Numbered from the stretch's first letter, positions 1 through 35,317 are shown. The stretch: DNA of 43,701 bases from Psammoneis japonica (GCA_008632985.1 QPGO01000355.1:1-43701), one strand, 5' to 3'. The notes: generated by a model from the sequence alone, not told the origin. Made by a program: numbers and translations.

Positions 1-278
1 CACAGACACATCTTTTGAATGTTTCACACATCTCGCAAACAGCTTGCAAGCACCTCACACACACATTGCACACATCTCACAAGTGCCAGCACACACCTTG
101 TGCACATTTTGCAAACACCTCTTGCACACCTTGCACACATCTTTCAAACTTTTTTGTGCGCATCTTGTGCACATCTCACAAAACCCTCAAATGTGCCACT
201 TCACACACATCTTGCACACATCTCAAAAACATCTCACACACATCATGAGCACATCTTGTGCGCACCTTGCAAACACCT

Positions 279-860
279 CCAAAACAGATTGCGATGTGTT
301 CCAGCTGCACATGAACCAAATCGTGCATAAAAACAACATTTGCATGATTTTTGCGCGATCCCCAACTTGCGATCGATCTTTCACCACCAAAAGCATGGAT
401 TTGAGCAAGTGCAAATGTTTTGCAACACTGACAACACTCTTGTGAGTGCTGCAATGTCATTGTCACTGTGCTGTCTGTGTTTTTCATTGTTGTCACTGTG
501 CTGTCTGTGTTTTTCATTGTGCCAAAAGATTGGCAACACAACGGATGATTTTCCGCAAAAATGTTGCCATCGCTTGGATGTCACCTGAGTGTGTCTTTCT
601 TCGATGCCACTTGGCAGGTTTTCCACCTGCAAAGAAATCTCAGCAAAAACACACTGATGTGCAATCAGCGTTGAGTCTGCTGAGGAAGTTTGTGATGCAC
701 ACCCCACAACAAACTGCTCAACTGTTCACACTCTGGACACCCACAGAAGCCAATCCGCTTGAGCGTTTTGTGTGAAAATGCTCCATGCACTTAAAGACAC
801 ACAATTTACGTTCAAAGTCGATTGTCGTTTTGTGCATCATCTGGGACTGGAACACGTCTT
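279..860 (+). repeat. Module B copy 1 (decayed coding-like fragment; other copies at ~8138-8690 and ~17538-18090)
   Basis: Three near-identical copies starting CCAAAACAGATTGCGATG and ending CTGGRRCTGGARCACGTC. Copy 1 has an internal ~30-bp tandem duplication at ~461-520. Confidence 0.9.
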
Positions 861-1487
861 GCACACATTTTGCACACATTTGGCAAACATCTCACAAACA
901 CCTCATGCACAGGCACCACACACATCTTGCAAACACCTCTCACACACATTGTGCACACATCACAAATGCCTTGCACACATTTTGCAAACACCTTGCACAC
1001 ATCATTTCAAACTTTTTGCACCCACAAGTCAACATTGTCACAAAGCTTGCACACACATCTTGCAAACACATGACACACATTTCACACAAATCTGGCAAAC
1101 ATCTCACAAACACCTCATGTGCACACTGCACACCACATGCACACATCCTGCGCACCTCACATGTGTGCCCTGCAAATTGCTTGCACACACATCTTGCAAA
1201 CACACCACACAAGTCAGCCACACAGCTCCCACACATCTCCAGTGCCTCAGACATGCACAAGGTGTTTGTGAGATGTCGTGTCTGGTGTGTCGGAGCATGA
1301 GTGAGGTGAATTTGTCAAAGCAAGAGCACCTGCAAAACAGTTGTGGCACAAACTTTGTTGGCACGTTTTGCAGTTGTTGTGCTTGTGCTCAACTTTCCAG
1401 GAGCTTTCTCATGCAAAGTGCATCCAACCCCACATTTGCAGCCACATTCTCCAGTGTGAACCCCGGCGCTCATCAGCATCTCAACAA

Positions 1488-1952
1488 NNNNNNNNNNNNN
1501 NNNNNNNNNNNNNNNNNNNNNNNNNNNNNNNNNNNNNNNNNNNNNNNNNNNNNNNNNNNNNNNNNNNNNNNNNNNNNNNNNNNNNNNNNNNNNNNNNNNN
1601 NNNNNNNNNNNNNNNNNNNNNNNNNNNNNNNNNNNNNNNNNNNNNNNNNNNNNNNNNNNNNNNNNNNNNNNNNNNNNNNNNNNNNNNNNNNNNNNNNNNN
1701 NNNNNNNNNNNNNNNNNNNNNNNNNNNNNNNNNNNNNNNNNNNNNNNNNNNNNNNNNNNNNNNNNNNNNNNNNNNNNNNNNNNNNNNNNNNNNNNNNNNN
1801 NNNNNNNNNNNNNNNNNNNNNNNNNNNNNNNNNNNNNNNNNNNNNNNNNNNNNNNNNNNNNNNNNNNNNNNNNNNNNNNNNNNNNNNNNNNNNNNNNNNN
1901 NNNNNNNNNNNNNNNNNNNNNNNNNNNNNNNNNNNNNNNNNNNNNNNNNNNN
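1488..1952. other. Assembly gap (465 N)
   Basis: Run of N characters. Confidence 1.
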
Positions 1953-2299
1953 TGCACACATCTTTCAAACATTTTGCACATCTCACAAACATCTGTCAAA
2001 CACCTTGCACACACATTGTGCACATCTCACAAATGTCCTGCACACACCTTGCACACATTGTGCAAACATGTCACATGCATTTTGTGCGCGCATCTTTCAA
2101 TTGTCCCTCACAAACCTTTTGAAAAATTCATGCACATCTGCAAACACCTCACACACACCACTTCACACACATCTTGCACACATCTCACAAATGTCTTGCA
2201 CACATCTGGCGTGCATGTTGCGCACATCTTGCTGCTGACCACACATCTCATGCACACCTGGCAAACATCTCACAAGCAAATTGTGCACATGCTGTGCAC

Positions 2300-2536
2300 A
2301 TGGACCCAACAGCAGGCCATCAAGTCTCAAGCTTTTCATTTCCAGGTGGAAGCCCTGGGGTGCAACAAAACAGTTGGCAAACTTGGTTTCTGCCACTTCA
2401 AATTGCTCACAACAACAGCGAGATCGCCATCACATGCACCCGCAACAGACACGTGTTTCATTGTGGCTCTCCCCTCCAATTGCAATTTCAGAATCATCTT
2501 TTCCATCAGCAAGGATCAGATCTTGAACAAAAACTG
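2300..2536. repeat. Module H (copy at ~9675-9912; shorter variants at ~7060-7240, ~16005-16185, ~27900-28080)
   Basis: Shared GCAACAAAACAGTTGGCAAAC...CAATTTCAGAATCATCTTT...AACAAAAAC sequence, usually directly upstream of module C. Confidence 0.85.
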
Positions 2537-3146
2537 AGTGCAACAGGAGCAGCTCATTTTGAGAGACTTTGACAATGCCAGCTGAAGCAGCGGGTCTTTG
2601 ACTCCAATGTCAATGTCCATCAACATTCTTTTCTTGTTGTCCTCTTCCGCTGTTGGTGCTTGGTTGCCTCCACCCAATGGGGCACCCCTTCTTTAGAAGC
2701 TGAATGTGCACCTTGATGATGCCAATCATCAAATTCTGCACTCCAACTTGCTCCACGGCTTGCAATGTTCTCTGCCTCTTCCCAAGACACAAGTTGTCCA
2801 TTGCTCTCCAATTTGATTGCGTGTTCCAGCAAACAGAGCAATTCTTGGATGACACGGTCTGCCACTTTTGCTGATGGCGTTGCAGCTTCTTTTGCACCAG
2901 AAAAGTCTGGTTTCAGAATCTCCTGAGACCAGTTCTTGCTGCTCTGAATGAGTGGGCTGTCTTTGTCACAGATCTTGTGTTTCTTTGACTTGTCAATCAA
3001 AGTCTCCACAATGACGCAGAGAACAGACTGTTTGCATCCCATGTTTTCACTGCAACTCTTGTGCCCAAGGTTGTCAAAATGTGCAGTCAAGTGGCAGCAC
3101 TTTTTGAAAAGCATCTGAGATCAATTCCATCTTTGCCGAGTTGTTG
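2537..3146 (-). pseudogene. Module C copy 1: decayed minus-strand coding fragment, unidentified (copies at ~7240-7850, ~16185-17245 with TRIM insertion, ~19354-19964, ~28082-28690)
   Basis: Five copies in two subtypes. The minus frame stays open for 164-197 aa (ETLIDKSKKHKICDKDSPLIQSSKNWSQEILKPDFSGAKE...WSAEFDDWHHQG) with protein-like composition and no Tyr. Family not recognised. Confidence 0.55.
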
Positions 3147-3819
3147 CACTCATCATTGACACATCTTTTGAATGTTTCGCACAGCTCGCAAACAACTCAC
3201 ACACACATTGCACACATCTCACAAGTGCCAATGCACACACCTTGTGCACATTTTGCAAACACCCCTTGCACACCTTGCACACATCTTTCAAACTTTTTTG
3301 TGTGCATCTTGCACACATCTCACAAACCCCTCAGTTGTGACACTTCACACACATCTTGCACACATCTCAAAAACATCTCACACACATCATGAGCACATCT
3401 TGTGCACACCTTGTGAACACCTCAAGAACAGATTGCACACATTTTGCACACATTTGGCAAACATCTCACAAACACCTCCTCACGCACAGGCACTGCACAC
3501 ATCTTGCAAACACCTCTCACACACATTGTGCGCACATCACAAATGCCTTGCACACATTTTGCAAACACCTTGCACACATCATTTCAAACGTTTTGCACCC
3601 ACAAGTCAAACATTTTGCACAAAGCTTGCACACACATCTTGCAAACACATGGCGCACATTTCACACACATCTGGCAAACATCTCACAAACACCTCGCACA
3701 AACACTGCCCACCACATGCACACATCCTGTGCACCTCGCATGTGTGCCCTGCAAATTGCTTTCACACACATCTTGCAAAGACACCACACAAGTCAGCCAC
3801 ACAGCTCTTGCACATCTCC

Positions 3820-4275
3820 AGTGCCCTCAGATGTGCACAAGGTGTTTGTGAGATGTGTGTCTGGTGTGTGTGGAGCATGAGTGAGGTGATTTGTCAAAGC
3901 AAGAGCCACCTGCAAAAGAGTTGTGGCACAAACTTTGTTGGCACGTTTTGCAGTCATTGTGCTTGTGCTCAGCTTTTCCAGGAGCTTCCTCATGCAAAGT
4001 GCATCCAACACCACATTTGCAGCCACATTGTCCAGTGTGAACCCCGGCACTCATCAGCATCTCAACAACATTTGATGGCATGACACTCTTGCACCACAAG
4101 AGTCTTTTGAGGGCCAAAGAGTGTGCACAAAGCTGGGCAAACGGGGACAGGATGAGATGGATCTCTGCTGAACAACTTTTGCAGATGGAAACAGCAAGCC
4201 CTTTTCATGATCAAACCTTCTGAGTCAGCAAAATCTTTGTTGGGGTTTTCCAAACTCCTGCTGTGCTTGAAACAT
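3820..4275. repeat. Module G (copies at ~1240-1487, ~11120-11440 plus 13119-13226, ~18470-18925, ~20568-21022, ~22731-23502 plus 25180-25307, ~29377-29829)
   Basis: Recurrent GTGCCTCAGACATGCACAAGGTGTTTGTGAGATG...CTCCTGCTGTGCTTGAAACAT block. Two copies are split by module E. Confidence 0.9.
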
Positions 4276-4700
4276 CTTGCACACACCTCGCACACATGTT
4301 GCGCACATCTTTCAAATGTTTTGTGCACATCTTGCACACATCTTGCAAATCTGACACACACAATTTGCACACATCTTAAACACACACACCTCACACAATG
4401 TTGGCCAACATCTCATGTGCACATCTCACAAACACCCCACACACATCTTGTGCACATGTTTCAAATGTTTGCGCGCATCTTGCGCACACATTGCAAACAA
4501 CTCACAAACACTTTGCACACATCTCACACACATTCTGTGCACATCTTTTGAACACATCTTTCAAACATTTTGCACATCTCACAAACATCTGTCAAACACC
4601 TTGCACACACATTTGCACATCCCAAAAATGTCCAGCACACACCTTGTGCACATTGTGCAAACACATCATGTGCACTTTGTGCGCGCATCTTTCAATTGCC

Positions 4701-6745
4701 TTTGCTGAAACACACATCATGTTTCAGCAAAATTTGCTGAAACATGCGCTTTGCTGAAACAGGTTTGAGCAAAATCTGCTGAAACATGAGTCCTGTTTGA
4801 GCAATTTTGCTGCAATGATTGTGGCGGCATTTTGTTCATGCTTGTCTGGGTGGTTGGCCAGTCAGAGTGTCCGCTGGTGACAAGATCAGTTGCCGTGCAG
4901 ACAACGTGCAGATGCAATGAAGGACAGCCGATCCAATCCATTTGAGCATGGATTTGGAACGAGCTCAACGAGCCAGTTCCAGATCCGATTGCCAATGGTT
5001 TGGAGCTCCTGTCCATTGCACTTTTGGTTTCATGCACTGTCCCATGACAAAGCACACCACGTGCCACATCGTGCAGCCAAGCTGCACTGACACCATGGGG
5101 AAATGAGCAAGGTGTCATGATTGCTGCTGTTGCTTTGACAGGGAAGCAAAAAATGTTCCAAACAAGGCACCAACAATTGTTTGCAGCATCCAACAACAGC
5201 GCTTGCTGCAAAAATTAGCTCTTCTTCTCTCTTTAAAAAAAAATCATTCCATTGTTCCTTTTCCATGTCCCGCATGGTGCGTTGTCGACGTTGAAAATCA
5301 GAGTGTCATTTTCTGCATCTGTCATGGGAAACTGGCAGAAACAAAATGACGCTGTCCATGCACGTGTGTTCCTCAGATGCTGACAATTCCTTGGATGCTG
5401 ACAACTGCATCTGCAGCGGAAATCAACCCAGTGATTGCAGACTTGCTGGTGTCAGCGCAGTGGTCGTGAGAGCCCTGCAGAAAAAAGTCAGCAAACACAC
5501 TGCTTGTTGGCATGTCTGAGTGCAGCACAACAGCCAACGGTGCTGAGAAATCAAGTGCAACCATCAAAACAAGCACTGCTTTACAGTGGTGTGACTGCAC
5601 TCTCATCTTGATTGACGTTGTGGCCACTGATCTACAAATGATCAAGCCCCATGGTGGGAGATGTGGTGTTTTCCATTGTTCTGAGCATTGCATGAGATGC
5701 AACTTCAAAATGCCATGTCATGTGCCATGATGTCGCGTGGCTTCATGTGCAATGCATGGGGTGAACCTCAAGCAACCAGGAGGTGGTGGCTGCCCAATGC
5801 ACCCCAAGTGACCCGGATGTTGGGATTCTTGATTTGCCAAAATCACATCCATCATTGCACGCCCTCACCTGACAAACCTTGAAAGCTGCTGCTGCAATGT
5901 CGACAACCACGTGGCACTCTCAACAAGCATGACAATCATCTCAAATGTGCAACCCAATTGCATGATCAAATTGCACACATTCAAATTGGTGCGCTGGTGC
6001 ATTCTTGCCTTTCTTGCATCTAAAACGGGTGCTGTGAGATGACACAAGCAACAAAACTTTTCATCACGGTGATTGGTGATCGGTGCACACATCTTGTGCT
6101 GGAGTCATGCAGAATCCTGCAGGCAAAGCAGTTGACAGCCGTCATTTTTCTGAAAAGTCTTGGTGGACGTGCGCTGTGTTGTTCGATGCCTGCTTCACCT
6201 CCACAGCCACAGAAGCAGCCCATGTCAATTGGCTTGAAATGACACAGCATCTGAACGAAAGATTCCGGCAGAATGAGGTGTGAAAGACCCCAAAAAGAGG
6301 AAAAACACTTTGCCACAGCAATTCTCTGTTGTGACAAGGCAACGTTGACCATGCAGTGATTAAAGCGCATCATCGCCACACAGCATTGATGCAGCAGACT
6401 GGTTGAAATGTGGGCTGCTTGAACATTTTGCTTTTGCAGCAACTTGTTTGCTTCAAGCCTTGCCAAAGCACTGGCAAGTTTGTGCTTCAATGCGCCATGT
6501 GGTTGTGAGTGGAGTCAGTGCCAGCAACATGGGTGGCATTTTTTTTGTTCAGAAACTGAGTCACTCATCAACACACAATTTTGCCTGTTGCATGTTTCAG
6601 CAAAATTTGCTGAAACATGGCATGTTTCAGCATTTGCTGAAACATGACAGGTTCAGCAGAATCTGCTGAAACATTTGGCAGGTTTCAGAAATTGCTGAAA
6701 CGTGCATTTTTGGTGATGCACGACTCAGCTTTTGATGAAACATGC
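4701..6745. mobile_element. Module D copy 1: ~2-kb putative DNA element with palindromic subterminal repeat clusters
   Basis: Both ends carry arrays of TTTCAGCA/TGCTGAAAC motifs, including the 29-bp palindrome CATGTTTCAGCAAA-A-TTTGCTGAAACATG at 4718-4746 and 6591-6619. The interior is decayed and coding-like. No TSD or transposase motif recognised. Confidence 0.55.
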
Positions 6746-9700
6746 AGCAAATGCAAGACTGAAATGCAGTTTTTTAGTCATGAATGTCAACAACACTTGC
6801 AGCCGGGGTTTGCTCATTTCCGTTGAAATTGTGTGATGTCGCACATTTCAGCAGATTGCCCAGATGGCACTGCAAACACCCCACACATGTCAGGCACGCA
6901 ACTCCTGCACATCTCAAACAAACCTCACACACACCACACAACTGCCCCACACAGGCCTGGCACACTTGCTGTGCACACCTTGCACATGTGTTGCTCACAT
7001 CTTTTGCACATGCCACGCACATCTTTCAAACATTTCATGCATGTGTCGCGCACATTTCAAGCCCTGAGGTGCAACAAAACAGTTGGCAAACTGCCGCTTC
7101 AAATTGCTCACAAAAACAGCGGGACTGCCATCACATGTGTTCATGATGGACACGTGTTTCATTGTTGGCTCTCCCCTCCAACTTGCAATTTCAGAATCAT
7201 CTTTTCTGTCAGCAAGGATCAGCTCTGAAACAAAAACAGAGTGCAACAGAAGTGACTCATTGCATGAGACGTTGACAAGTCTCGCTGAAGTGGTGGGTCT
7301 TTGACTCCAAGGTCAGCGTCAAGCAACACTCTTTTCTTGTTGCCCTCTTCTGCTGTTGGTGCTTGGCTGCCTCCACCCAATGGGGCGCCCCCTTCTTTAG
7401 AAGCTGAGTGTGCACCTTGATGATGCCAATCATCAAATTCTGCGCTCCAACTTGCTCCATGGCTTGCAATGGTCTCTGCCTCTTCACAAGACACAAATTG
7501 TCAATCACTCTCCAATTTGATTGTGTGTTCCAGCAAACGGGGCAATTCTTGGATGATGCGGTCTGCCTCTTTTGCTGAAGGCATCACAATTTCTTTTGCA
7601 CCAGAAAAGTCTGGTTTCAGAATCTCCTGAGAGGACCAGGTCTTGCTGCTCTGAATGAGTGGGCTGTCTTTGTCACAGATCTTGTGTTTCTTTGACTCAT
7701 CAATCAAAGTCTCCACAATGACAAGGAGAGCAGACTGTTTGCATCCAATTTTTCACTGCAACTCTTGTGCCCAAGGTTGTCAAAATGTGCAGTCAAGTGG
7801 CAGCACTTTGAAAAGCATCTGAAATCAATTCCATCTTTGACGAGTTGTTGCGCTCGTCACAGACACATCTTTTGAATGTTTCACACATCTCGCAAACAGC
7901 TTGCAAGCACCTCACACACACATTGCACACATCTCACAAGTGCCAATGCACACACCTTGTGCACATTTTGCAAACACCTCTTGCACACCTTGCACACATC
8001 TTTCAAACTTTTTTGTGCGCATCTTGCGCACATCTCACAAAACCCTCAAATGTGCCACTTCACACAGATCTTGCACACATCTCAAAAACATCTCACACAC
8101 ATCATGAGCACATCTTGTGCGCACCTTGCAAACACCTCCAAAACAGATTGCGATGTGCTCCAGCTGCACATGAACCAAATTGTGCACATGAACAACATTT
8201 GCGCAATTTTTGCGCGATCCCCAACTTGCGATCGATCTTTCACCACCAAAAGCATGGATTTGTGCAAATGCAAATGTTTTGCAACACTGACAACACTCAT
8301 GTGAGTGCTGCAATGTCATTGTCGCTGTGCTGTCTGTGTTTTTCATTGCGTTAAAAGATTGGCAACACAACGGATGATTTTCGGCAAAAATGTTGCCATC
8401 ACTTGGATGTCACCTGAGTGTGTCTTTCTTCGATGCCACTTGGCAGGTTTTCCACCTGCAAAGAAATCTCAGCAAAAACACGCTGACGTGCAATCAGCGT
8501 TGAGTCTGCTGAGGAAGTTTGTGATGCACACCCCACAAAAAACTGTTCAAATGTTCACACTCTGGACACCCACAGAAGCCAACCCGCTTGAGCGTTTTGT
8601 GTGAAAATGCTCCACGCACTTGAAGACACACAATTTACGTTCAAAGTCAATTGTCGTTTTGTGCATCATCTGGGACTGGAGCACGTCTTGCACACATTTT
8701 GCACACATTTGGCAAACATCTCACAAACACCTCACACACAGGCGCCACACACATCTTGCAAACACCTCTCACACACATTGTGCACACATCACAAATGCCT
8801 TGCACACATTTTGCAAACACCTTGCACACATCATTTCAAACTTTTTGCACCCACAAGTCAAACATTTTGCACAAAGCTTGCACACACATCTTGCAAACAC
8901 ATGACACACATTTCACACACATCTGGCAAACATCTCACAAACACCTCATGCGCACACTGCACACCACATGCACACATCCTGCACACCTCGCATGTGTGCC
9001 CTGCAAATTGCTTTCACACACATCTTGCAAAGACACCACGCAAATCAGCCACACAGCTCTTGCACTTGCACACACCTCACACACATGTTGCGCACATCTT
9101 TCAAATGTTTTGTGCACATCTTGCAAATCTGACACACACATTTTGCGTGCATCTCAAACACACACACCTCACACAATGTTGGCCAACATCTCACACACAT
9201 CTCACAAAAACCCCACACACATCTTGCGCACATGTTTCAAACATTTGCGCACATCTTGCGCACACACTGCAAACACCTCACAAACACTTTGCACACATCT
9301 CACACACATTCTGCACACATCTTGTGCACACATCTTTCAAACATTTTGCACATCTCACAAACATCTGTCAAACACCTTGCACACACATTGTGCACATCTC
9401 ACAAATGTCCTGCACACACCTTGCGCACATTGTGCAAACACATCACGTGCATTTTGTGTGCGCATCTTTCATTTGTCCCTCACAAAACTTTTGAACAATT
9501 CATGCACATCTGCAAACACCTCACACACACCACTTCACACACATCTTGCACACATCTCACAAATGTCTTGCACACATCTGGCGCGCATGTTGCGCACATC
9601 TTGCATGCTGACCACACATCTCATGCACACCTGGCAAACATCTCACAAGCAAATTGTGCACATGCTGTGCACATGGACCCAACAGCAGGCCATCAAGTTT

Positions 9701-10739
9701 CAAGCTTTTCATTTCCAGGTGGAAGCCCTGGGTGCAACAAAACAGTTGGCAAACTTGGTTTTCTGCCACTTCAAATTGCTCACAACAACAGTGAGATCGC
9801 CATCACATGCACCCGCAACAGACATGTGTTTCATTGTTGGCTCTCCCCTCCAATTTGCAATTTCAGAATCATCTTTTCCATCAGCAAGGGTCAGATCTTG
9901 AACAAAAACTGAGTGCAACACACACACCACTTCACACACATCTCACAAATGTCTTGCACACATCTGGCATGCATGTTGCACACATCTTGCACACTTGCCA
10001 CACATCTCACACACATCTGGCAAACATCTTACAAACAAATCATGCACATGCTGTGCACATCTCACAAACACCCCACACATGTGTTGAGCACATCTGGTGC
10101 ACCTTGCGTGCATCTTTCAATGTTTTGCACACACCTGTCTTGTGCGCCATGCACACATCTTGCAAACACCCCACACGTGTCAGGCGTGCAACTCCTGCAC
10201 ATCTCAAATGAGCATCACACACACCACACAAATGCCCCACACAGGTCTGGCACACATGTTGTGCACACCTTGCACATGTGTTGCTCACATCTTCAGCACA
10301 TGCCATGCACATCTTTCAAACATTTCGTGAACGTGCCGCGCACATTTTGCAAATGCCTCGCACACATCTCGCGTGCATCTCACACACATCATCCAAACAA
10401 TTTGTGCACATCTCTCGCACATTTCTCAAACATCTTGCACACACCTCACATGCACATTTTGCACACATCTCACAAACACCTCACACACAATGTGCTTGCA
10501 CATGGCTTGCATTCATTTTGCTGGTGTCGCACACACACCTTGCCAGCACCTCACTCACATCTTGCACACATCTCATCCACATCTTTCAAACATTTTGTGC
10601 GCACCTTGCAAACACCTCATCTTGCAAGTGACTTGCACACATCTCACAAACACATCATAAAAAGATCACACACACCACACACAAATCTCACAAAAAATTT
10701 GCAAACAACTTGCACACACGTGTCCCACAATTTTTTGGA

Positions 10740-11070
10740 AGATCGCACACACAAAACATGTGGTGGATGATGAAATGCAATTGCATCACACGTTGCACTG
10801 CAAGCTCTCACCTGGAGCTGGAAAGCATCCAGTGCAGGTCCCAAGACTGCCTCTGTCATGCTCCAGAAGCACTGCAGTTTGTCTGGCTCAGCACACCATG
10901 GCATGCTGCCAGCGCACAACATGCCCTGCTTGGCTGGACTTGTGTTGAAAGACAAACAAAATGCTGTGCCATGATGCTCTCAGCAGCTTCTTTTGTTGTT
11001 GAGAAAATCAATGATGATGAGAGCATGTTTCAAGCACAACAGGAGTTTTTGGGTCAACCCAACAAAGGCT
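10740..11070. repeat. Module I (copy at ~22350-22680)
   Basis: Two near-identical copies. The 3' end (11025-11067) is an inverted copy of the end of module G (13187-13226). Confidence 0.85.
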
Positions 11071-23339: not shown

Positions 23340-23502
23340 CAGGAGCTTTCTCATGCAAAGTGTGTCCAACCCCACATTTGCAGACACATTCTCCAGTGTG
23401 AACCCCGGTGCCCATCAGCATCTCAACAACATTTGATGGCATGGCACTTTTGCACCATGTGAGTGCCTTTTGAGGGCCAAAGAGTGTGCACAAAGCTGAG
23501 CA

Positions 23503-25179: not shown

Positions 25180-25709
25180 ACAGGATGAGATGGATCTCTG
25201 CTGAACAACATTTGCAGATGGAGACAGCGGATCCTTTCCATGATCAAACCTTCTGAGTCAGCAAAATCTTTGTTGGGTTGACCAAACTCCTGCTGTGCTT
25301 GAAACATCTTGCACACGCCTCACACACATGCTGCGCACATCTTTCAAATGTTTTGTGCATGTCTTGCACACATCTTGCAAATCTGACACACACACACCTC
25401 ACACAATGTTGGCCAACATCTCATGTGCACATCTCACAAACACCCCACACACATCTTGTGCACATGTTTCAAACCTTTGCGCACATCTTGCGCACACATT
25501 GCAAACAACTCACAAACACTTTGCACACATCTCACACACATTCTGTGCACATCTTTTGAACACATCTTTCAAACATTTTGCACATCTCACAAACATCTGT
25601 CAAACACCTTGCACACACATTGTGCACATCCCAAAAATGTCCTGCACACACCTTGTGCACATTGTGCAAACACATCATGTGCACTTTGTGCGCGCATCTT
25701 TCAATTGCC

Positions 25710-27650
25710 TTTGCTGAAACATGCTGCATGTTTCAGCAAAATTTGCTGAAACATGCATTTTGCTGAAACAGGTTTCAGCAAAATCTGCTGAAACATGAGT
25801 CCTGTTTGAGCAATTTTGCTGCAATGATTGTGGCGGCATTTTGTTCATGCTTGTCTGGGTGGTTGGCCAGTCAGAGTGTCCGCTGGTGACAAGATCAGTT
25901 GCCGTGCAGACAACGTGCAGATGCAATGAAGGACAGCCGATCCAATCCATTTGAGCATGGATTTGGAACGAGCTCAACGAGCCAGTTCCAGATCCGATTG
26001 CCAATGGTTTGGAGCTCCTGTCCATTGCACTTTTGGTTTCATGCACTGTCCCATGACAAAGCACACCACGTGCCACATCGTGCAGCCAAGCTGCACTGAC
26101 ACCATGGGGAAATGAGCAAGGTGTCATGATTGCTGCTGTTGCTTTGACAGGGAAGCAAAAAATGTTCCAAACAAGGCACCAACAATTGTTTGCAGCATCC
26201 AACAACAGCGTTCACTGCAAAAATTAGCTCTTCTTCTCTCTTTAAAAAAAAAATCATTCCATTGTTCCTTTTCCATGTCCCGCATGGTGCGTTGTCAACG
26301 TTGAAAATCAGAGTGTCATTTTCTGCATCTGTCATGGGAAACTGGCAGAAACAAAATGACGCTGTCCATGCACGTGTGTTCCTCAGATGCTGACAATTCC
26401 TTGGATGCTGACAACTGCATCTGCAGCGGAAATCAACCCAGTGATTGCAGACTTGCCGGTGTCAGCGCAGTGGTCGTGAGAGCCCTGCAGAAAAAAGTCA
26501 GCAAACACACTGCTTGTTGGCATGTCTGAGTGCAGCACAACAGCCAACAGTGATGAGAAATCAAGTGCAGCCATCAAAACATGCACTGTTTTACAGTGGT
26601 GTGACTGCACTCTCATCTTGATTGACGTTGTGGCCACTGATCTACAAATGATCAAGCCCCATGGTGGGAGATGTGGTGTTTTCCATTGTTCTGAGCATTG
26701 CATGAGATGCAACTGCAAAATGCCATGTCATGTGCCATGATGTCGTGTGGCTTCATGTGCAATGCATGGGGTGAACCTCAAGCAACCAGGAGGTGGTGGC
26801 TGCCCAATGCACCCCAAGTGACCCAGATGTTGGGATTCTTGATTTGCCAAAATCACATCCATTGTTGCACGCCCTCACCCGACAAACCTTGAAAGCTGCT
26901 GCTGCAATGTCGACAACCACATGGCGCTCTCAACAAGCATGACAATCATCTCAAATGTGCAACCCAATTGCATGATCAAATTGCAAACATTCAAATTGGT
27001 GCGCTGGTGCACTCTTGCCTTTCTTGCATCTAAAACAGGTGCTGTGAGATGACACAAGCAACAAAACTTTTCATCGCGGTGATTGGTGATCGGTGCACAC
27101 ATCTTGTGCTGGAGTCATGCAGAATCCTGCAGGCAAAGCAGTTGACAGCCGTCATTTTTCTGAAAAGTCTTGGTGGACGTGCGCTGTGTTGTTCGATGCC
27201 TGCTTCACCTCCACAGCCACAGAAGCAGCCCATGTCAATTGGCTTGAAATGACACAGCATCTGAACGAAAGATTCTGGCAGAATGAGGTTTGAAAGACCC
27301 CAAAAAGAGGAAAAACACTTTGCCACAGCAATTCTCTGTTGTGACAAGGCAACGTTGACCATGCAGTGATTAAATCACATCATTGCCACACAGCATTGAT
27401 GCAGCAGACTGGCTGAAATGTGGGCTGCTTGAACATTTTGCTTTTGCAGCAACTTGTTTGCTTCAAGCCTTGCCAAAGCACATTCAAAGGCACTGACTGC
27501 AGTGGCAAGTTTGTGCTTCAATGCACCATGTGGTTGTGAGTGGAGTCAGTGCCAGCAACATGGGTGGCATTTTTTTCATTCAGAAACTGAGTCACTCATC
27601 AACACACAATTTTGCCTGTTGCATGTTTCAGCAAAATTTGCTGAAACATG
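25710..27650. mobile_element. Module D copy 3 (right end shortened)
   Basis: Palindromes at 25727-25755 and 27622-27650. About 190 bp present in copies 1 and 2 is missing directly after the right palindrome. Confidence 0.55.
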
Positions 27651-30600
27651 TTTGCTCATTTCCGTTGAAATTGTGTGATGTCGCACATTTCAGCAGATTG
27701 CCCAGATGGCACTGCAAACACCCCACACATGTCAGGCACACAACTCCTGCACATCTCAAACATGCCTCACACACACCACACAACTGCCCCACACAGGCCT
27801 GGCACACTTGCTGTGCACACCTTGCACATGTGTTGCTCACATCTTTTGCACATGCCGCGCACATCTTTCAAACATTTCATGCATGTGTTGTGCACATTTT
27901 AAGCCCTGGGGTGCAACAAAATGGTTGGCAAACTGCCACTTCAAATTGCTCACAACAACAGTGGGGCTGCCATCACATGTGTTCATGATGGACACGTGTT
28001 TCATTGTTGGCTCTCCCCTCCAACTTGCAATTTCAGAATCATCTTTTCTGTCAGCAAGGATCAGCTCTGAAACAAAAACAGAGTGCAACAGAAGTGACTC
28101 ATTGCATGAGACGTTGACAAGTCTGGCTGAAGTGGTGGGTCTTTGACTCCAAGGTCAGCGTCAAGCAACACTCTTTTCTTGTTGCCCTCTTCTGCTGTTG
28201 GTGCTTGGCTGCCTCCACCCAATGGGGCGCCCCCTTCTTTAGAAGCTGAGTGTGCACCTTGATGATGCCAATCATCAAATTCTGCACTCCAGCTTGCTCC
28301 GTGGCTTGCAATGGTCTCTGCCTCTTCACAAGACACAAGTTGTCAATCACTCTCCAATTTGATTGCGTTTTCCAGCAAACGGGGCAATTCTTGGATGATG
28401 CGGTCTGCCGCTTTTGCTGGGGGCATCACAATTTCTTTTGCACCAGAAAAGTCTGGTTTCAGAATCTCCTGAGAGGACCAGGTCTTGCTGCTCTGAATGA
28501 GTGGGCTGTCTTTGTCACAGATCTTGTGTTTCTTTGACTCGTCAATCAAAGTCTCCACAATGACATGGAGAACAGACTGTTTGCATCCAATTTTTCACTG
28601 CAACTCTTGCGCCCAAGGTTGTCAAAATGTGCAGTCAAGTGGCAGCACTTTGAAAAGCATCTGAAATCAATTCCATCTTTGGCGAGTTGTTGCGCTCGTC
28701 ACAGACACATCTTTTGAATGTTTCGCACATCTCGCAAACAGCTTGCAAGCACCTCACGCACACACTGCACACATCTCACAAGCGCCAATGCACACACCTT
28801 GTGCACATTTCGCAAACACCTCTTGCACACCTTGCACACATCTTTCAAACTTTTTTGTGCGCATCTTGCGCACATCTCACAAAACCCTCAAATGTGCCAC
28901 TTCACACACATCTTGCACACATCTCAAAAACATCTCACACACATCATGAGCACATCTTGTGCACACCTTGTGAACACCTCAAGAACAGATTGCACACATT
29001 TTGCACACATTTGGCAAACATCTCACAAACACCTCCTCACGCACAGGCACCACACACATCTTGCAAACACCTCTCACACACATTGTGCGCACATCACAAA
29101 TGCCTTGTGCACATTTTGCAAACACCTTGCACACATCATTTCAAACTTTTTGCACCCACAAGTCAAACATTTTGCACAAAGCTTGCACACACATCTTGCA
29201 AACACATGGCACACATTTCACACACATCTGGCAAACATCTCACAAACACCTTGCACAAACGCTGCCCACCACATGCACACATCCTGTGCACCTCGCATGT
29301 GTGCCCTGCAAATTGCTTTCACACACATCTTGCAAAGACACCACGCAAGTCAGCCACACAGCTCTTGCACATCTCCAGTGCCTCAGACATGCACAAGGTG
29401 TTTGTGAGATGTGTGTCTGGTGTGTGTGGAGCATGAGTGAGGTGATTTGTCAAAGCAAGAGCCACCTGCAAAAGAGTTGTGGCACAAACTTTGTTGGCAC
29501 GTTTTGCAGTCGTTGTGCTTGTGCTCAGCTTTCCAGGAGCTTCCTCATGCAAAGTGCATCCAGCCCCACATTTGCAGTCACATTGTCCAGTGTGAACCCC
29601 GGCACTCATCAGCATCTCAACAACATTTGATGGCATGACACTCTTGCACCACGAGAGTCTTTTGAGGGCCAAAGAGTGTGCACAAAGCTGGGCAAACGGG
29701 GACAGGATGAGATGGATCTCTGCTGAACAACTTTTGCAGATGGAAACAGCAAGCCCTTTTCATGGTCAAACCTTCTGAGTCAGCAAAATCTTTGTTGGGT
29801 TTTCCAAACTCCTGCTGTGCTTGAAACATCTTGCACACACCTCGCACATGTGTTGCGCACATCTTTCAAATGTTTTGTGCACATCTTGCACACATCTTGC
29901 AAATCTGACACACACAATTTGCACAAATCTTAAACACACACACCTCGCACAATGTTGGCCAACATCTCACGCACATCTCACAAACACCCCACACACATCT
30001 TGCACACATGTTTCAAACATTTGCGCGCATCTTGCGCACACACCACAAACACCTCACAAACACTTTGCACACATCTCACACACATTCTGTGCACATCTTG
30101 TGCACACATCTTTCAAACATTTTGCACATCTCACAAACATCTGTCAAACACCTTGCACACACATTGTGCACATCTCACAAATGTCCTGCACACACCTTGC
30201 ACACATTGTGCAAACACATCATGTGCATTTTGTGCGTGCATCTTTCAACTCCCCCTCATGAACCTTTCAAACAATTTGTGCACATCTTGCAAACACCTTG
30301 CACACATCTTGCAAATCTGACACACACATTTTGCACACATCTCAAACACACACACACACACACACACACACCTCACACAATGTTGGCCAACATCTCACAC
30401 ACATCTCACAAACAACCCACACACATCTTGCACACATGCTTCAAACATCAGCGCACATCGTGCGCACACATTGCAAACACCTCACAAACACTTTGCACAC
30501 ATCTCACACACATTCTGTGCACATCTTGTGCACACATCTTTCAAACATTTTGCACATCTCACAAACATCTGTCAAACACCTTGCACACACATTGTGCACA

Positions 30601-31007
30601 TCTCACAAATGTCCTGCACACACCTTGCACACATTGTGCAAACACATCATGTGCATTTTGTGCGAGCATCTTTCAACTCCCCCTCATGAACCTTTCAAAC
30701 AATTTGTGCACATCTTGCAAACACCTGGCACACACCACTTCACACACATCTCACAAATGTCTTGCACACATCTGGTGTGCATGTTGCACACATCTTGCAC
30801 ACTGACCACACATCTCATGCAAACCTGGCAAACATCTCACAAGCAAATTGTGCGCATGCTGCGCACATCACACAAACACCCCACACATGCGCTGACCATG
30901 TCTGGCACACCTTGTGTGTGTTTTTCAACATTTTGCACACACCTGCTTTGCACACCATGCACACATCTTGCAAACACCCCACACATGTCAGGCGCACAAC
31001 TCACGCA

Positions 31008-32245
31008 CATCTCAAACATGCCTCTGGCACACACCCATGGCGTGCACATCTCTCACACACCGCGCACATCTCACACACATTTTTGCAAACACTTTGCACA
31101 CATCACTCAAATGTTTTGTGCACGTGCCACACACACCTTGTTGCAAACATCTCACAAACACCTTGCACACATTTTGCAAACACACCTTGCACTCATCTTG
31201 CACACATTTTCCACACATCTCATGCACATCTTGCACACATTGTCCAAACATTTTGCACACATTTCTCAAACATCTTGCTGATGCCTCGTGCATTTTGCAC
31301 ACACTTTGCACACATCTGGTGTGCACGTCTTGCACTCACACACATCTTGCAAACACCCTGCACACACCTTGCACAATTGCAAGCATCTTGCTGACACCTC
31401 ACACACACATCTCTTTTGAGTGTGTTGCGTGCATCTCAAACATGCCTCTGGCACACACCCATGGCATGCACATCTCTCACACACTGTGCACATCTCACAC
31501 ACATTTTTGCAAACACTTTGCACACATCACTCAAATGTTTTGTGCACGTGCCACACACACCTTGTTGCAAACATCTCACAAACACCTTGCACACATTTTG
31601 CAAATGCACCTTGCACTCATCTTGCACACATTTTCCACACATCTTGTGCACATCTTGCGCACATTGTCCAAACATTTCGCGCACATTTCTCAAACATCTT
31701 GCTGATGCCTCGTGCATTTTTGCACACACTTTGCACACATCTCGTGTGCACGTCTTGCAAACACCCTGCACACACCTTGCACAATTGCAAGCATCTTGCT
31801 GACACCTCGCACACACACATCTCTTTTGAGTGTGTTGCGCGCATCTCAAACATGCTTCTGGTGCACACCCATGGTGTGCACATCTCTCACACACCGTGCA
31901 CATCTCACACACATTTTTGCAAACACTTTGCACACGTCACTCAAATGTTTTGTGCACGTGCCACACACACCTTGTCGCAAACATCTCACAAACACCTTGC
32001 ACAAATTTTGCAAAAACACCTTGCACTCATCTTGCACACATTTTCCACACATCTTGCACACATTGTCTGAACATTTTGCACACATCTCTCAAACAACTTG
32101 CTGATGCCTCGCGCATTTTGTGCACACTTTGCACACATCTCACATGCACGTCTTGCACTCACACACATCTTGCAAACACCCTGCGCACACCTTGCACAAT
32201 TGCAAGCATCTTGCTGACACCTCACACACACATCTCTTTTGCGTG
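31008..32245 (+). repeat. Higher-order tandem repeat of the satellite, 3 units of ~410-424 bp
   Basis: Marker CATCTCAAACATGCYTCTGG at 31008, 31432 and 31842. Confidence 0.9.
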
Positions 32246-32796
32246 CTTTGCACACATCTTTCAAGCGTTCTGCACACATGATCTTGCAATCACCACATTT
32301 TGCAACCACCTGCGCACATCTCATGCACCACATCGTTCAAACGCTTCACACACATCTCACACACAGCATGGTTTTTCAAACATCTGGCAAAACACCTCAC
32401 ACACACTTCTTCACAAACATTTTGCAAACATCTCACAAACACCTTGTGCACATCATTCATGTCATGCACCTTTTGTTTGTGCGCATCTTTCAAACATTTT
32501 GCACACATCTCACCCAAGCACCTCACACACATTTGACACACATCTTGTGCGCATCTTGTGTGCACGTCTTGCACACACCTGGCACACATCTTGCACACAT
32601 CTTCCAAACAATTTGTGCACAACTCACACATGTCTTGCAAACACCTCACACGCATCTCCAGTGCACATCTTGCACAAATCTTTCAAACACTTCACACATC
32701 TTGCACACACACTGCAAACACCTCACTCACATCTCACACACATCTTGCACAACCACCTTTTTGTGCACATTTCACATGTTGTGCACATCTTTCAAA

Positions 32797-34278
32797 CAGG
32801 ATGCTGAGACCTGCTGCAGCCATGGAAATTGGGGCACAATTCAGGGCACAATTTGGTGGAGTGCAATTCAGGGCACAATTTGGAGGTGCAAAAATGTGCG
32901 CCGCGCAAATGTGCGCCCAAAATTGCGCCCATTGTCACACGAGTGCAAGTGTGTGAAATTGGGTGTCTGCAATTCTGAGAGAAATGATGTGTCCATTGAA
33001 CACATGCTCCTGAAATTTTGATGATGACTGAGCAGGAATGACTCCACATCTCTGATTTTGGTCAACTTGCATGTGTGCAAAACTGAACACTCCAATGACA
33101 GCATCAAAACACTGTGGTGCTCAGCAGCTCCGCTGCAACCTTGTGCACGCCAAATCATTGTTCTGACAAGTCCTGTTCATTTGCGATGACTTGGCTGACA
33201 TTGCAAATTGCTGTTGCATCCATGGGCTTTCAGCAACCACATGACGATGTGTTTTTCTTGTGAGGTGGCATGAACTTGCCTTCCGTCTGTCATCCGTTGA
33301 TGGCAATCTCATCATTTTTGCCACTGTTTCTTTCATGAATGTGCCACACAATGGCTCCCCAGCAAGCAGTCCCTCTGCATCTCTTGCTGATTGAAGTTCA
33401 TTGTTGGTTGTTGGTTGTCACTGTTGTTTGACACTCTGATGTTTGTTGCCATCATGGGCAATGATGAGTCTGGAAAAGAGTGATGTGGGCTGCGTGCTGT
33501 TGCACATTTTGCACATGTGTCTTGGTTTGCACATGACGCCAGCAAAGCAAGCCAAAGTTTGCTTCACACACCGCATCATCAAGTTGCCATTGTGGTTGTC
33601 ATGACTGCAGAAACAACACAAATTGACAGTGTGAAATGAACACAATGTGTCTCTTGAAGGAACTGGCAAAGCACACAGCAGTTCTTCTGCAGCGGACCTT
33701 TTGTCCTCAAAAGATTTTGCCAGTCTTGATGTGCATCATAGAAAGTCAATGCATGAGATCACCAAAGTGCATCTGTGTGACACAGAAACAACTGTGCTGA
33801 CCAATTTGGATGCAACCACTTCAATGGCACTGTTGTTGTGTTGTTTGAATTTAGGCTGGGGGCTCGAATGGCCCAAGAAGGAGTGAGCAAAAGCTCTCTC
33901 CACTTGACAACCACTTGAGTTGCTCCACAAGCTTGTTGCATTTGCACTGAACAAAAAAAAAAGGCACCCCCAGACTGAGAAAAACATGGCGGCTCTGATG
34001 GCGTCATTCTTGTTGTCACAAGGCAGAGCTTTGGTGCCATCATCATGGGCTGTCATCTTCATTGCACCAGGCAGGGTGTTTGCAGCACCTTTTTGTTTTT
34101 CACACCAGCTGGGTTGCCAAAATGCCAAAATGAAAAAGAACTGAGGTTGGCTCTTTTTCATTTTCTTTTTTTGCTTGCCCAGGGTTGGCCTTGCACCCCA
34201 AAGTTGCGCCCCAAATTGCGCCCCCACCCCACTCGCACTGTGACTGCAACGGGTCTGAGACCAGCACACAGCATCCTG
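32797..34278. mobile_element. Putative TIR DNA transposon remnant (~1.48 kb)
   Basis: Left end CAGGATGCTG-AGACCTGCTGCAGCCA. The right end reverse-complements to CAGGATGCTG-(12 nt)-AGACCCGTTGCAGTCA. Subterminal GGGCRCAATTTGG repeats in inverted orientation at ~32831-32930 and ~34191-34225. No TSD or transposase motif seen. Confidence 0.6.
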
Positions 34279-34329
34279 ACTGCAACAACTGAAAAAGTGA
34301 AAAAAGCTTGTGTCATTGCTCAAGGATCA

Positions 34330-35300
34330 AACAGCAAAGAGAGGGTGGGGAAATGACATGATGGCCCCACCTTCTGGAAAATGATCACTGGGTGACACAA
34401 AAATCGCAGGACAACTTTGTTCCCCACCAAGCAAGAAGCCAAACTGCTGCCACCTTTGAAAAATGATGTGACTCCTCAGAAGTGCAAATGACTCTAGCCA
34501 AAAGTTTTCCAGAGGCAAAATGTTTGGGTTGGTTGGGCTGCAGCCAAATCAACTCACACAAGCCAGACCTTTTGCAGCCACGATGAAGGCACTTGTGCCC
34601 ACTCCCTCTCAAGGGAACATGAGAGCTGTGCCCTGCACAACTCCCACTGTGGTGTGTGCTGCAGAAAAGCTGGCATTGCCAAATGACTCTGTTGCCAAAT
34701 GTTTGTGTTGCCTCTCTTTGCTGGTCAAAGCAACGATGACCAGCTTCTCTTGCTGAGAACTTTCTGAGGCTCTGGAGCTGCAAAAAACTTTCTCCAAAGC
34801 AGGCCCTTTTTCAGCTTCTTGCAATCATGCAACACAACTCATGCCCACACAAACATGATGCCATTGATGGATCCACATTCACGGGATGTTGCAGCACCAG
34901 TGAACAGGGCTGCGGCAAAGATGAGTGTTGTGACAGCAGCTTTAAATGGGGCGGTCTGCTGTGTGCGTGCATGTGTTGAGACCTGCCAAAACGACATGTT
35001 GATGGATCAGAAGCCTTTGCAGGTTTTCACTGGAACACCAAAAATGAGCTCTCCAAGCTGTCCATCATCATTGGGGGGGGGGGGGGGCTCCTCTTCAACA
35101 GCCGCCAACCCCACTCTGTTGGAGAACATTTCGACCCAAGCCCTTTCCCCACCCTGCAACACCAGCAAGTTTTCAACCACCTTGATGGCGTTCTTCACGT
35201 GCAATTTTGCAGAACTGCCTCAAATGAGATGACCATCCTTCATCTGGATCTCATCGATGTCCACTCCTCGAACATCGGAGTCGTTTCTCCCATTCGTTTC
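34330..35300 (-). pseudogene. Possible decayed minus-strand gene remnant at the compartment border
   Basis: Protein-like stretches (DSDVRGVDIDEIQMKDGHLI*GSSAKLHVKNAIKVVENLLVLQGGERAWVEMFSNRVG; TTLIFAAALFTGAATS) broken by TGA stops and frameshifts. Family not recognised. Confidence 0.3.
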
Positions 35301-35317
35301 TCTCTACGAGTCGTGCA

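Follow-up and report, generated by a model that had tools for sequence, protein, structure and literature searches.

How does a stretch of about 35 kb of repeat-rich DNA, adjoining ordinary diatom genes, come to lack about 98% of its TA dinucleotides? The question is raised by positions 1–35300 of a 43,701-nucleotide sequence from Psammoneis japonica (the window, that is, the whole stretch of DNA analyzed here), in which 50 TpA are seen where 2405 are expected from base composition, an observed/expected ratio (o/e) of 0.02. Our answer, which we consider probable, is a regionally targeted hypermutation of silent DNA from TpA to TpG or CpA, now saturated and lying atop ordinary CpG decay.

Within 1–35300, AA, TT, and AT persist (o/e 1.09, 1.27, and 0.87, respectively), CpA and TpG are raised to 2.06 and 2.16, and CpG falls to 0.33–0.34; in the neighboring 35301–43701, TpA stands at 0.48 and CpG at 0.93. 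Each of the 35 one-kb intervals of 1–35000 holds 0–5 TpA (o/e at most 0.07), with a CA+TG o/e of 1.76–4.16, and the TpA frequency in the compartment is 0.0009–0.0021. The compositional part of the original prediction is borne out by these figures. It had counted about 19 TpA in 1–13000 (there are exactly 19, against 852 expected) and 9 in the 120 bp at 36601–36720 (again 9 on recounting), and had described AA, TT, and AT as still common and CpA and TpG as enriched. It had also described ORFs in all six frames as free of Tyr and ending in TGA, with which the codon census on both strands of 1–35300 agrees (TGA 1649, TAA 63, TAG 23, TAC 10, and TAT 4); with TpA missing, this follows trivially.

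The TpA-erased, CpG-depleted compartment (1–35304) is a mosaic of satellite and of segmental duplications with 86–98% identity, and its boundary coincides with the start codon of a glycosyltransferase family 61 (GT61) gene. About half of 1–35000 is satellite-rich, the 11-bp consensus being CACACATCTTG, a unit that itself contains no TpA; the longest arrays (29826–32259, + strand) are CA-rich on the + strand and show higher-order periods of 424–428 bp. A run of 465 N at 1488–1952 is either an assembly gap or sequence that was withheld. As had been claimed, unrelated sequences share the depletion: it affects the 11-bp satellite, segmental duplications of several unrelated families, and two segments of which the window has no other copy. 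The TpA-free segment at 32800–35300 has no in-window copy of at least 400 bp; the property is therefore not tied to one repeat family. Where the same sequences had been named as TRIMs, a TIR element, and coding remnants, the naming was not upheld, with 0 of the 65 ORFs of at least 90 aa from the non-satellite parts having a credible Pfam family. Comparison of these 65 compartment ORFs with Pfam likewise yielded no reverse transcriptase and no viral or transposon protein domain, for which the sequences may be too degraded, and one ORF, searched exhaustively with HMMER, had a single, spurious match.

The GT61 gene (35318–36817, + strand) consists of one open frame and has TpA and CpG at normal levels; spliced-type contigs of run X2 cover 35484–36966. 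Beyond it lie a transition zone (37500–38199), low in CpG and partly depleted of TpA (9 in 700 bp), and a single-copy TpA-free patch (38200–39060; 1 TpA) that stops no more than about 40 bp before position 39098, where contigs of the next gene set in. The TpA-poor stretch from about 37500 to 39060 falls beyond the range covered by the original prediction. The next gene (39098–40908, + strand) encodes a pseudouridine synthase (PseudoU_synth_2) and has an intron at 40404–40486 (GT..AG) with 8 TpA. The last gene (41145–43701, + strand) runs off the window; its bHLH-MYC_N-type match is weak (25 bits, below the Pfam cut-off of 30.2), its named homologues are exclusively from diatoms, and its intron at 41461–42023 (GT..AG) has 27 TpA and 33 CpG. 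It is by the homologues of this gene that the window is assigned to the nuclear DNA of a diatom, the matches of a second gene being all unnamed. The edges of the depletion are sharp, at 35305–35318 (the GT61 start codon) and at about 39060, and the depleted regions are discrete, the genes, introns, and 3′ flanks of the same contig being normal. Introns and 3′ flanks retain TpA at 0.0595 of dinucleotides, so codon selection is not the cause.

What the missing TpA became can be approached through a mass balance, the baseline for which is 6.8 kb of mostly coding neighboring DNA that need not match the ancestral composition of the compartment. From normal to TpA-free DNA, TA falls from 4.0 to 0.2% and CG from 5.7 to 2.0%, CA+TG rises from 15.0 to 23.6%, and G+C is unchanged (0.467 vs. 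0.479). The CpA+TpG gained equals the TpA lost plus the CpG lost: the four dinucleotides together make up 24.8% of normal DNA and 25.9, 24.4, and 23.5% of three non-satellite TpA-free sets, and when five unrelated segments are balanced by purine/pyrimidine flank class, the total loss is 76.4 and the total gain 78.0 sites per 1000. The direction, TA to CA/TG, is one that we infer from composition rather than from an outgroup or an intact copy. Methyl-CpG decay alone was rejected, as it covers the CpG loss of 3.7 points but neither the TpA loss of 3.8 nor the full CA+TG gain of 8.6. Such decay does operate here as a second process, CG versus CA/TG being the commonest class of paralog difference, although it leaves TpA intact and covers only about half of the CpA/TpG excess.

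The flanking bases of the survivors should also be considered. Relative to CA+TG sites with the same flanks, surviving TpA number 0/3629 in RTAY, 14/3997 in mixed flanks, and 36/1370 in YTAR. Within the mixed class, the gain is +30.0 for RCAR/YTGY versus +8.1 for RTGR/YCAY, and the same is seen in all five segments, though this asymmetry could also arise from flank-dependent CpG decay or from CA to CG flux. The target on each strand looks like 5′-T-A-Y-3′ (A to G), equivalent to R-T-A (T to C) when the opposite strand is read. The motif rule has exceptions, as 7–8 of about 26 independent survivors have TAY on one of their strands. Sequence cannot distinguish T to C at R-T-A from A to G at T-A-Y, since TpA reads identically on both strands. 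A runs test on the order of CA and TG in five segments (z from −1.35 to +1.14) revealed no strand clustering.

Comparison of paralogs speaks to timing. Four sites at which copies had been said to differ do so on alignment: TTAAAG at 791 (column 792, TA vs. TG in two copies), TTTACG (columns 807 and 8636, TA vs. one TG), GCTAAT at about 12532 (12534, TA vs. TG), and GTTAAA at about 8350 (the column of 8352, with TA, CA, and TG). CA/TG double differences number 158 in 36209 aligned columns, against about 725 expected under independent conversion of copies; the copies share their CpA/TpG states, and most of the erasure is therefore older than the duplications seen here. A cluster of seven surviving TpA at 5216–6775 (5216, 5234, 5582, 5633, 6021, 6361, and 6775), most of them in YTAR context, is retained at homologous sites in the copies at 14139–15719 and 26225–27371. 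Seven TpA sites are kept in all 3–5 copies, and parsimony gives about 3 losses versus 3 gains; surviving TpA is thus fairly stable, which excludes a very fast present-day process hitting every TpA. When the singleton is taken as derived, a polarity that is unreliable with three copies, a non-star tree, and hypermutable CpG, TpA-creating transitions occur at 2/4635 sites versus 11/2999 for G to A after A/G (p = 0.001), A to G with a preceding A/G occurs at 12/960 sites before C versus 5/2775 before a purine (odds ratio 7, p = 1.3e-4), and changes of A to G and T to C number 67 versus 42 of C to T and G to A. GpC has an o/e of 1.35 versus 1.01, and other genomic copies show 275 differences from the window, of which the 40 listed include one that creates TpA.

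The compartment-wide conversion of TpA to TpG/CpA proposed at the outset is consequently still the best reading, carried by mass balance, context dependence, and the rarity of TpA creation among paralogs; what does not survive is its "RIP-like" triggering by duplication, given that the single-copy patch is equally TpA-free and that the double differences fall so far short of expectation. The course of events was probably as follows. A silent compartment, comprising repeats and at least one single-copy intergenic patch, would have been exposed to two context-specific transition processes, one by which CpG, presumably methylated, decays in the ordinary way to TpG/CpA, the other a regional A:T to G:C hypermutation at TpA that would leave TpG on the hit strand and CpA opposite. 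The TpA process would be nearly complete, with RTAY (a target on both strands) erased and YTAR providing the main survivors, and a weaker A-to-G drift at N-A-C, enriching GpC, may still be ongoing. The process would halt at the 5′ ends of transcribed genes and spare introns, which suggests guidance by region or chromatin state and not by codon selection; the compartment itself we infer to be silent or methylated. Provided that the process is real, its enzyme might be a TadA/ADAT2-type adenine deaminase acting on DNA, a guess to which we give rather less than an even chance. No deaminase gene was found within the window, the three genes of which are unrelated to deaminases.

The same regional process from TpA to CpA/TpG could instead rest on thymine or on repair. 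Here, either an enzymatic modification of T in R-T-A (e.g., oxidized or hypermodified) would mispair with G, or mismatch/base-excision repair in silent chromatin would be biased to C:G. Self-complementary TpA fits a T-directed change equally well, and aberrant thymine-DNA-glycosylase repair, reported to yield TpG/CpA to CpG changes (PMC4041421), could explain the suggested flux from CA/TG to CG. However, the preference for a +1 pyrimidine, especially C, is also present in A to G changes outside TpA/CpA and resembles the YAC of TadA-type enzymes. To our knowledge, there is no modified thymine at TpA in diatoms, and we assign this alternative a small though real share of the probability.

It is decidedly unlikely that there was no TpA-specific mutation, the region owing its state to TpA-free ancestors (the CA-rich satellite and its derivatives) or to selection against TpA, for instance to escape a nuclease that cuts TA or transposons that target it. 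The satellite-rich half of 1–35000 with its TpA-less unit suits such an origin, as do the age of the erasure (shared CpA/TpG states) and the stability of surviving TpA, and the scarcity of new TpA among paralogs also fits purifying selection. Against this, TpA is just as absent from five mutually unrelated non-satellite segments, of which one is single-copy and two have no in-window copy; the missing TpA is matched by CpA/TpG of the same flank class at constant G+C, which selection would not specifically predict; and the transition zone at 37500–38199 is graded. No function is known to us for which TpA would have to be kept out of 35 kb of mixed non-coding DNA yet tolerated in introns 100 bp away.

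Conversion chemistry would yield such extreme dinucleotide loss, and one should therefore keep in mind a technical artefact, be it mis-assembly, chemical conversion in the library, or a modified base misread by polymerases, very improbable as we judge it to be. Logan contigs, rebuilt from the public DNA run X1, differ from the window at 0 positions over 34326–35064 (739 bases) and at 2 over 37800–39229 (1430 bases, depth 36), although X1, the best-matching run, may be the window's own source sample and is thus not fully independent. Contig depth in X1 is 77–987 in bins of 26000–34273, versus 57 for a single-copy gene contig. The original prediction had proposed such a check for artefact, and the recovery of TpA-free DNA in these contigs makes an assembly artefact unlikely. 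The same contig has normal genes, introns, and 3′ flanks, the contigs match at single-copy depth, and a misread base differing between strands would give mixed TG/CA reads everywhere, breaking such contigs. GC-biased gene conversion, or a general push from AT to GC where repeat arrays recombine, deserves almost no credence, for although repeats do exchange sequence and the singleton-polarized changes lean the right way (67 vs. 42), AA/TT (o/e 1.26) and AT (0.85) are not depleted, G+C is unchanged, and the single-copy patch is in the same state.

Among known systems, fungal RIP turns CpA into TpA, creating TpA and lowering G+C. The likeness is that context-specific transitions degrade repeats inside a compartment bounded against genes, but RIP was rejected: the direction is opposite (TpA o/e 0.02, CpA 2.06), G+C here is 0.465–0.479, as in genes, single-copy DNA is also affected, and most of the erasure predates the duplications. 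ADARs are known from metazoans; ADAR/APOBEC editing of genome-fixed retroelements is similar in that hypermutation of selfish DNA is visible as clustered transitions, whereas here no reverse transcriptase was found among the compartment ORFs and CA/TG are unclustered by strand. The natural target of TadA/ADAT2, A34, follows U33, and the natural enzymes act on tRNA, so the resemblance here is one of motif only. These enzymes and TadA-derived adenine base editors convert A to I, which is read as G; a TadA variant is reported to edit within "YAC" (PMC13109818), which fits both the erasure at T-A-Y (RTAY 0/3629 vs. YTAR 36/1370) and the drift at N-A-C (12/960 vs. 5/2775 for N-A-R), with the polarity uncertain and T-directed chemistry fitting equally. 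A review table gives 5′ACG for TadA/ADAT2 and 5′UAG for ADAR (PMC10661471). ADAR-type editing was rejected, since it prefers 5′-UAG, yet TAG/TAA contexts are spared here and CA/TG are not strand-clustered.

The original prediction knew of no described natural system of this kind, a statement overtaken by work on Bigelowiella natans in which hypermutation from TpA to TpG/CpA was measured (Mettrop et al., 2026, bioRxiv 10.64898/2026.01.13.699255). The preprint describes how integrated DNA of giant viruses and virophages is hypermutated specifically at TpA. In mutation-accumulation lines, two viral insertions acquired 231 new mutations, 230 of them A to G or T to C, reportedly all at TpA and at about 1000 times the background rate. 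TA-specific hypermutation of foreign DNA has so far been described only in B. natans, an alga unrelated to diatoms. It is possible, though doubtful, that diatoms have an adenine-deaminase defence acting on DNA, guided by chromatin and with a TadA-like target, T-A-Y (more weakly N-A-C), the defence being homologous or convergent to the Bigelowiella system. Were this so, such a mechanism would occur widely in the SAR supergroup, and in this species it would reach saturation over tens of kb, promoter-proximal single-copy DNA included; together with methyl-CpG decay, it would bring both self-complementary pyrimidine-purine dinucleotides of silenced DNA to CpA/TpG, permanently scrambling coding capacity with G+C unaltered, while a side activity at C-A-Y would restore CpG in RCGY contexts.

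The two cases differ in several respects. The host of the one is a chlorarachniophyte (rhizarian) and of the other a diatom (stramenopile), a term that does not occur in the preprint; the targets here are satellite, segmental duplications, and a single-copy patch, and the compartment ORFs yielded no viral or transposon domain. The giant-virus region of B. natans is reported to retain 3.3% TpA, whereas saturation here extends over 35 kb, joined by strong CpG depletion and by a readable extended T-A-Y context, the latter unreported in the preprint. Mutations there were observed de novo, and here the signature is known from sequence alone. The likenesses are as follows. The target dinucleotide and its products (TpA to TpG/CpA) are the same, and both systems affect discrete regions with normal neighbors. 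The long-term signature of the preprint (runs of at least three one-kb intervals with Rho TpA no higher than 0.43 together with Rho CpA+TpG no lower than 1.52) is found here, with Rho TpA at 0.02 and CpA+TpG at about 2.1, and the most depleted CDS subgroup of B. natans (mean TpA frequency 0.0018) lies near the 0.0009–0.0021 of the compartment. The best reading is that the diatom process would be of the same kind as that seen in the B. natans mutation-accumulation lines.

The first 35,300 positions of the window hold 50 TpA by exact count against 2405 expected from base composition (observed/expected, o/e, 0.02), and each one-kb window up to 35000 has between 0 and 5. Over the same range CpA stands at an o/e of 2.06, TpG at 2.16 and CpG at 0.34, with AA, TT and AT around 1; in 35301-43701, TpA is at 0.48 and CpG at 0.93. 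On both strands of 1-35300, the codon-type triplets comprise 1649 TGA, 63 TAA and 23 TAG, and Tyr codons number 14 in any frame. The counts in the original prediction, about 19 TpA in 1-13000 and 9 in 36601-36720, proved exact (19 and 9), and its four examples of paralogs differing by TA versus TG/CA were all found in the paralog alignments. The TpA-erased feature is genuine and striking. A second TpA-poor stretch lies outside the range first described, with partial depletion at 37500-38199 (9 TpA) and almost full depletion in a single-copy patch at 38200-39060 (1 TpA).

Three ordinary genes, all on the forward strand, make up the right part of the window: a GT61 glycosyltransferase gene (35318-36817) and a pseudouridine synthase gene (PseudoU_synth_2, 39098..40908), as well as a third, at 41145..43701, with a bHLH-MYC_N-type match that is weak and scores below the Pfam cut-off. 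The last has 497 homologues, with a best identity of 54%, and among the best 120 of these all organism-named matches are diatoms (Asterionellopsis, Seminavis, Fragilaria, Cylindrotheca, Epithemia, Amphora, Mayamaea and Bacillariaceae bins), which argues that the window is probably nuclear DNA of a diatom whose own proteins are absent from the collection searched, judging from the homologues of this one gene. The GT61 protein gave five matches, none carrying an organism name, and mixed eukaryotic taxa in an Atlas look-up.

The TpA-erased compartment, at 1..35304, ends at 35305-35318, that is, at the start codon of the GT61 gene, and the single-copy patch stops at about 39060, roughly 40 bp short of where contigs for the following gene start. 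Composition is normal in the intron at 40404-40486 (8 TpA in 83 bp), in that at 41461-42023 (27 TpA and 33 CpG in 563 bp) and also in the 3' flank of the GT61 gene; therefore, the contrast is regional and not a by-product of codon selection. Nor is it confined to repeats, since the single-copy patch is TpA-free as well. Two expressed genes have promoter-proximal DNA (34900-35317 and 38900-39097) that is itself TpA-free, so both promoters function without a TATA-like element.

Could the pattern be an artefact of assembly? In a public DNA sequencing run (X1, used as assembled contigs), 72% of sampled words from the window are present; its independently built contigs show 0 differences against 34326-35064, and one contig spanning the single-copy patch (37800-39229) shows 2 differences at a depth of 36, the gene contig having a depth of 57. 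A base misread in a strand-dependent way would leave TG and CA reads in conflict at each site, making such contigs impossible. The TpA-free state is thus unlikely to be an artefact, though X1 may be the source sample of the window assembly. A second public run (X2, also as assembled contigs) has no RNA label on its record and behaves like a transcriptome, because two GT..AG stretches are missing from its contigs: 40404-40486, an intron of the pseudouridine synthase gene, and 41461-42023, an intron of the bHLH-MYC_N-type gene. No X2 contigs were found on 26000-34864 or 37229-39001, and absent contig cover should not be taken as evidence of silence.

The left 35 kb combines, in mosaic fashion, an 11-bp satellite (consensus CACACATCTTG), whose higher-order periods range from 22 to 428 bp, with segmental duplications that are 86-98% identical. 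Higher-order satellite repeats lie at 29934-30734 (428 bp, 96% identity, 1.9 copies) and 31004-32259 (424 bp, 88% identity, 3 copies), and 465 N at 1488-1952, within a satellite-rich part, represent either an assembly gap of set length or sequence that was withheld. One duplicated segment carries a 231-bp unit twice in tandem (11928-12393 and 23991-24454; 92% identity). The duplications are direct except for an inverted pair, 16484-16930 and 22893-23339 (86.6% identity over 449 bp), both arms of which retain a TTAA, one of few (16540/16877 and 22945). Over 26000-34273, X1 contig depth summed per bin runs from 77 to 987, compared with 57 on the single-copy gene contig; therefore, these satellite and duplication families have far more copies elsewhere in the genome.

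No credible Pfam family was found among 65 ORFs from the non-satellite parts of the left 35 kb: an NblA match (18.8 bits) was under its cut-off, and a Thyroglobulin_1 match, at its cut-off and without a matched stretch, is an artefact of the Cys-rich translation of the 231-bp unit. Protein homology was sought in order to polarise changes through Tyr to His or Cys, and the protein-like ORF at 2623-3120 (-) lacks a true homologue in a set of 1.84 billion representatives, its lone match, a zinc-finger repeat protein (pairwise E of at least 0.19), being judged spurious. Scans of the window revealed no Rfam families or tRNA genes. That the surviving TpA serve as functional TAA or TAG stops was considered and set aside, the compartment showing no sign of coding. 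A satellite 20-mer retrieved four metagenomic contigs, all with normal TpA (0.43-0.92), and these are chance matches.

The lost TpA can be accounted for by mass balance. TA, CG, CA and TG together form 24.8% of dinucleotides in the normal DNA of the window, and 25.9%, 24.4% and 23.5% in TpA-free DNA (non-satellite, 32800-35300 and 38200-39060, respectively). Between normal and TpA-free non-satellite DNA, the share of TA drops from 4.0 to 0.2%, that of CG drops from 5.7 to 2.0% and that of CA+TG climbs from 15.0 to 23.6%, with G+C unchanged (0.467 vs 0.479). When sites were classed by purine (R) and pyrimidine (Y) flanks, which are invariant under transitions, and five unrelated segments were pooled, 76.4 sites per 1000 were lost and 78.0 gained, with a fair balance in each class, against a baseline of 6.8 kb of neighbouring, mostly coding DNA that is the weak point of the comparison. 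This balance is what conversion of CpG and TpA, both self-complementary, into CpA/TpG predicts. General GC pressure would not lead to this pattern, as AA/TT has an o/e of 1.26 and AT of 0.85 in TpA-free DNA, and selection against TpA does not specifically predict it either.

The sequence context of the erasure is uneven. There are about 26 independent surviving TpA sites, some 18 of them in YTAR (TTAA, TTAG/CTAA, CTAG), a context that makes up 16% of the 274 TpA in the window's normal DNA. When survivors are set against CA+TG sites in matching flanks, the ratios are 0/3629 for RTAY, 14/3997 for the mixed class (YTAY/RTAR) and 36/1370 for YTAR. For mixed flanks, the products RCAR/YTGY are in excess by +30.0 per 1000 versus +8.1 for RTGR/YCAY, in the same direction in all five segments; assuming symmetric CpG decay (about 10.8 per product), the entire mixed TpA loss (19.7) went to RCAR/YTGY, so that the adenine hit is that of Y-T-A-Y and not of R-T-A-R. 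Survivor ratios and this asymmetry together lead to a per-strand target of T-A-Y (A to G), equivalent to R-T-A (T to C), although the asymmetry could also be obtained from flank-dependent CpG decay or from CA to CG flux. A test of CA versus TG runs showed no clustering, and processive, strand-coordinated conversion was discarded.

CpG sites show flank effects as well. Paralogs differ more often by RCGR versus RTGR (97) than by RCGR versus RCAR (49), and RCGY versus RCAY/RTGY differences are very frequent (216); CpG retention is 61% for RCGY, 29% for mixed flanks and 21% for YCGR. Both the differences and the order of retention fit A to G change at C-A-Y. GpC has an o/e of 1.35, against 1.01 in genes, over 2240-3170, 4700-6800, 10700-13200, 32800-35300 and 38200-39060. 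The GpC enrichment and flank-dependent CpG retention may reflect A to G change at N-A-C and C-A-Y regenerating GpC and CpG, or else the enzymes of methylation and deamination may prefer certain flanks.

When did the erasure occur? The 36209 paralog columns that were aligned contain 5566 CA/CA, 3452 TG/TG and 158 CA/TG pairs, part of the last stemming from CpG, where about 725 CA/TG pairs would be expected had the copies each lost about 4% TpA independently. Most of the erasure is therefore older than these duplications, which speaks against "RIP-like" in the sense of a process triggered by duplication. The CA/TG pairs are about 2.4 times as many as a homogeneous CpG-only model gives in the class of at least 95% identity, an excess that rate heterogeneity among CpG sites can explain, so these double differences were dropped as proof of TpA decay. 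Seven surviving TpA are common to all 3-5 copies, and parsimony gives about three losses versus three gains among survivors. A very fast process hitting every TpA is not active at present. Taking the singleton as derived, which with three copies and an unknown tree is an unreliable polarity, transitions that create TpA affect 2 of 4635 sites, whereas G to A changes of a comparable kind affect 11 of 2999 (p = 0.001), and A to G away from CpA tracks the next base, with 12/960 at N-A-C versus 5/2775 at N-A-R (p = 1.3e-4). The rarity of new TpA, the N-A-C bias and the GpC enrichment are suggestive of continuing pressure. One TpA-creating change is found among the 40 listed of 275 differences between the window and other genomic copies.

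To our knowledge, no natural DNA A-to-G mutator acting against silent or foreign DNA was known before a 2026 preprint on the chlorarachniophyte Bigelowiella natans. We consider it probable that the feature is a second, saturated case, in a diatom, of TpA to TpG/CpA hypermutation of silent DNA, on top of CpG decay; we infer the TA to CA/TG direction of mutation and the epigenetic state of the compartment, and the target DNA may be of foreign origin. Provided that the process exists, we tentatively favour a TadA/ADAT2-type deaminase acting on adenine as its mechanism, the main alternative being chemistry directed at thymine or repair that is biased. If true, the process would not be a curiosity confined to one lineage, and it could be pursued in diatoms, which are ecologically important and genetically well established. 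The finding would also offer a far stronger signal for reading the preference of the enzyme, here T-A-Y with YTAR spared, would stand as a third mutational genome defence next to fungal RIP and APOBEC-type cytosine deamination, and would suggest that a DNA adenine deaminase exists in nature, which is of interest for base editing. Those annotating such genomes should keep in mind that TpA-free compartments are almost without TAA/TAG stops and without Tyr codons, so that long ORFs arise spuriously and both gene finders and binning by composition can be misled.

Among known systems, fungal RIP works in the opposite direction. Full-text literature searches brought up a single relevant work, the B. 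natans preprint, and nothing on a diatom compartment of this kind. A modified thymine at TpA, as in dinoflagellates, was entertained and abandoned, as a short spliced-leader motif gave one match with three mismatches, which is chance level, and the gene homologues point to diatoms. The 5'-UAG preference listed for ADAR in the available part of one source (PMC10661471) is the reverse of the contexts spared here, and the YAC context of TadA-type enzymes, as given in the available part of another (PMC13109818), is compatible with the pattern. The original prediction knew of no described natural system, a view superseded by the B. natans preprint, whose available text describes TpA to TpG/CpA hypermutation (bioRxiv 10.64898/2026.01.13.699255). 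There, 231 of 302 new nuclear single-nucleotide mutations in mutation-accumulation lines fell in integrated giant-virus and virophage regions, 230 of the 231 being A to G or T to C, reportedly all on TpA, at rates about 1000-fold over background; genome-wide clusters are depleted in TpA and enriched in CpA+TpG, one CDS subgroup has a mean TpA frequency of 0.0018, and ADAT2 is the candidate enzyme proposed (bioRxiv 10.64898/2026.01.13.699255). The window lies beyond the compositional thresholds in that text by a wide margin, and the same text mentions no diatoms and reports no wider motif. What the window adds to the B. natans system is the host lineage, the saturation, the concurrent CpG decay and the context rule.
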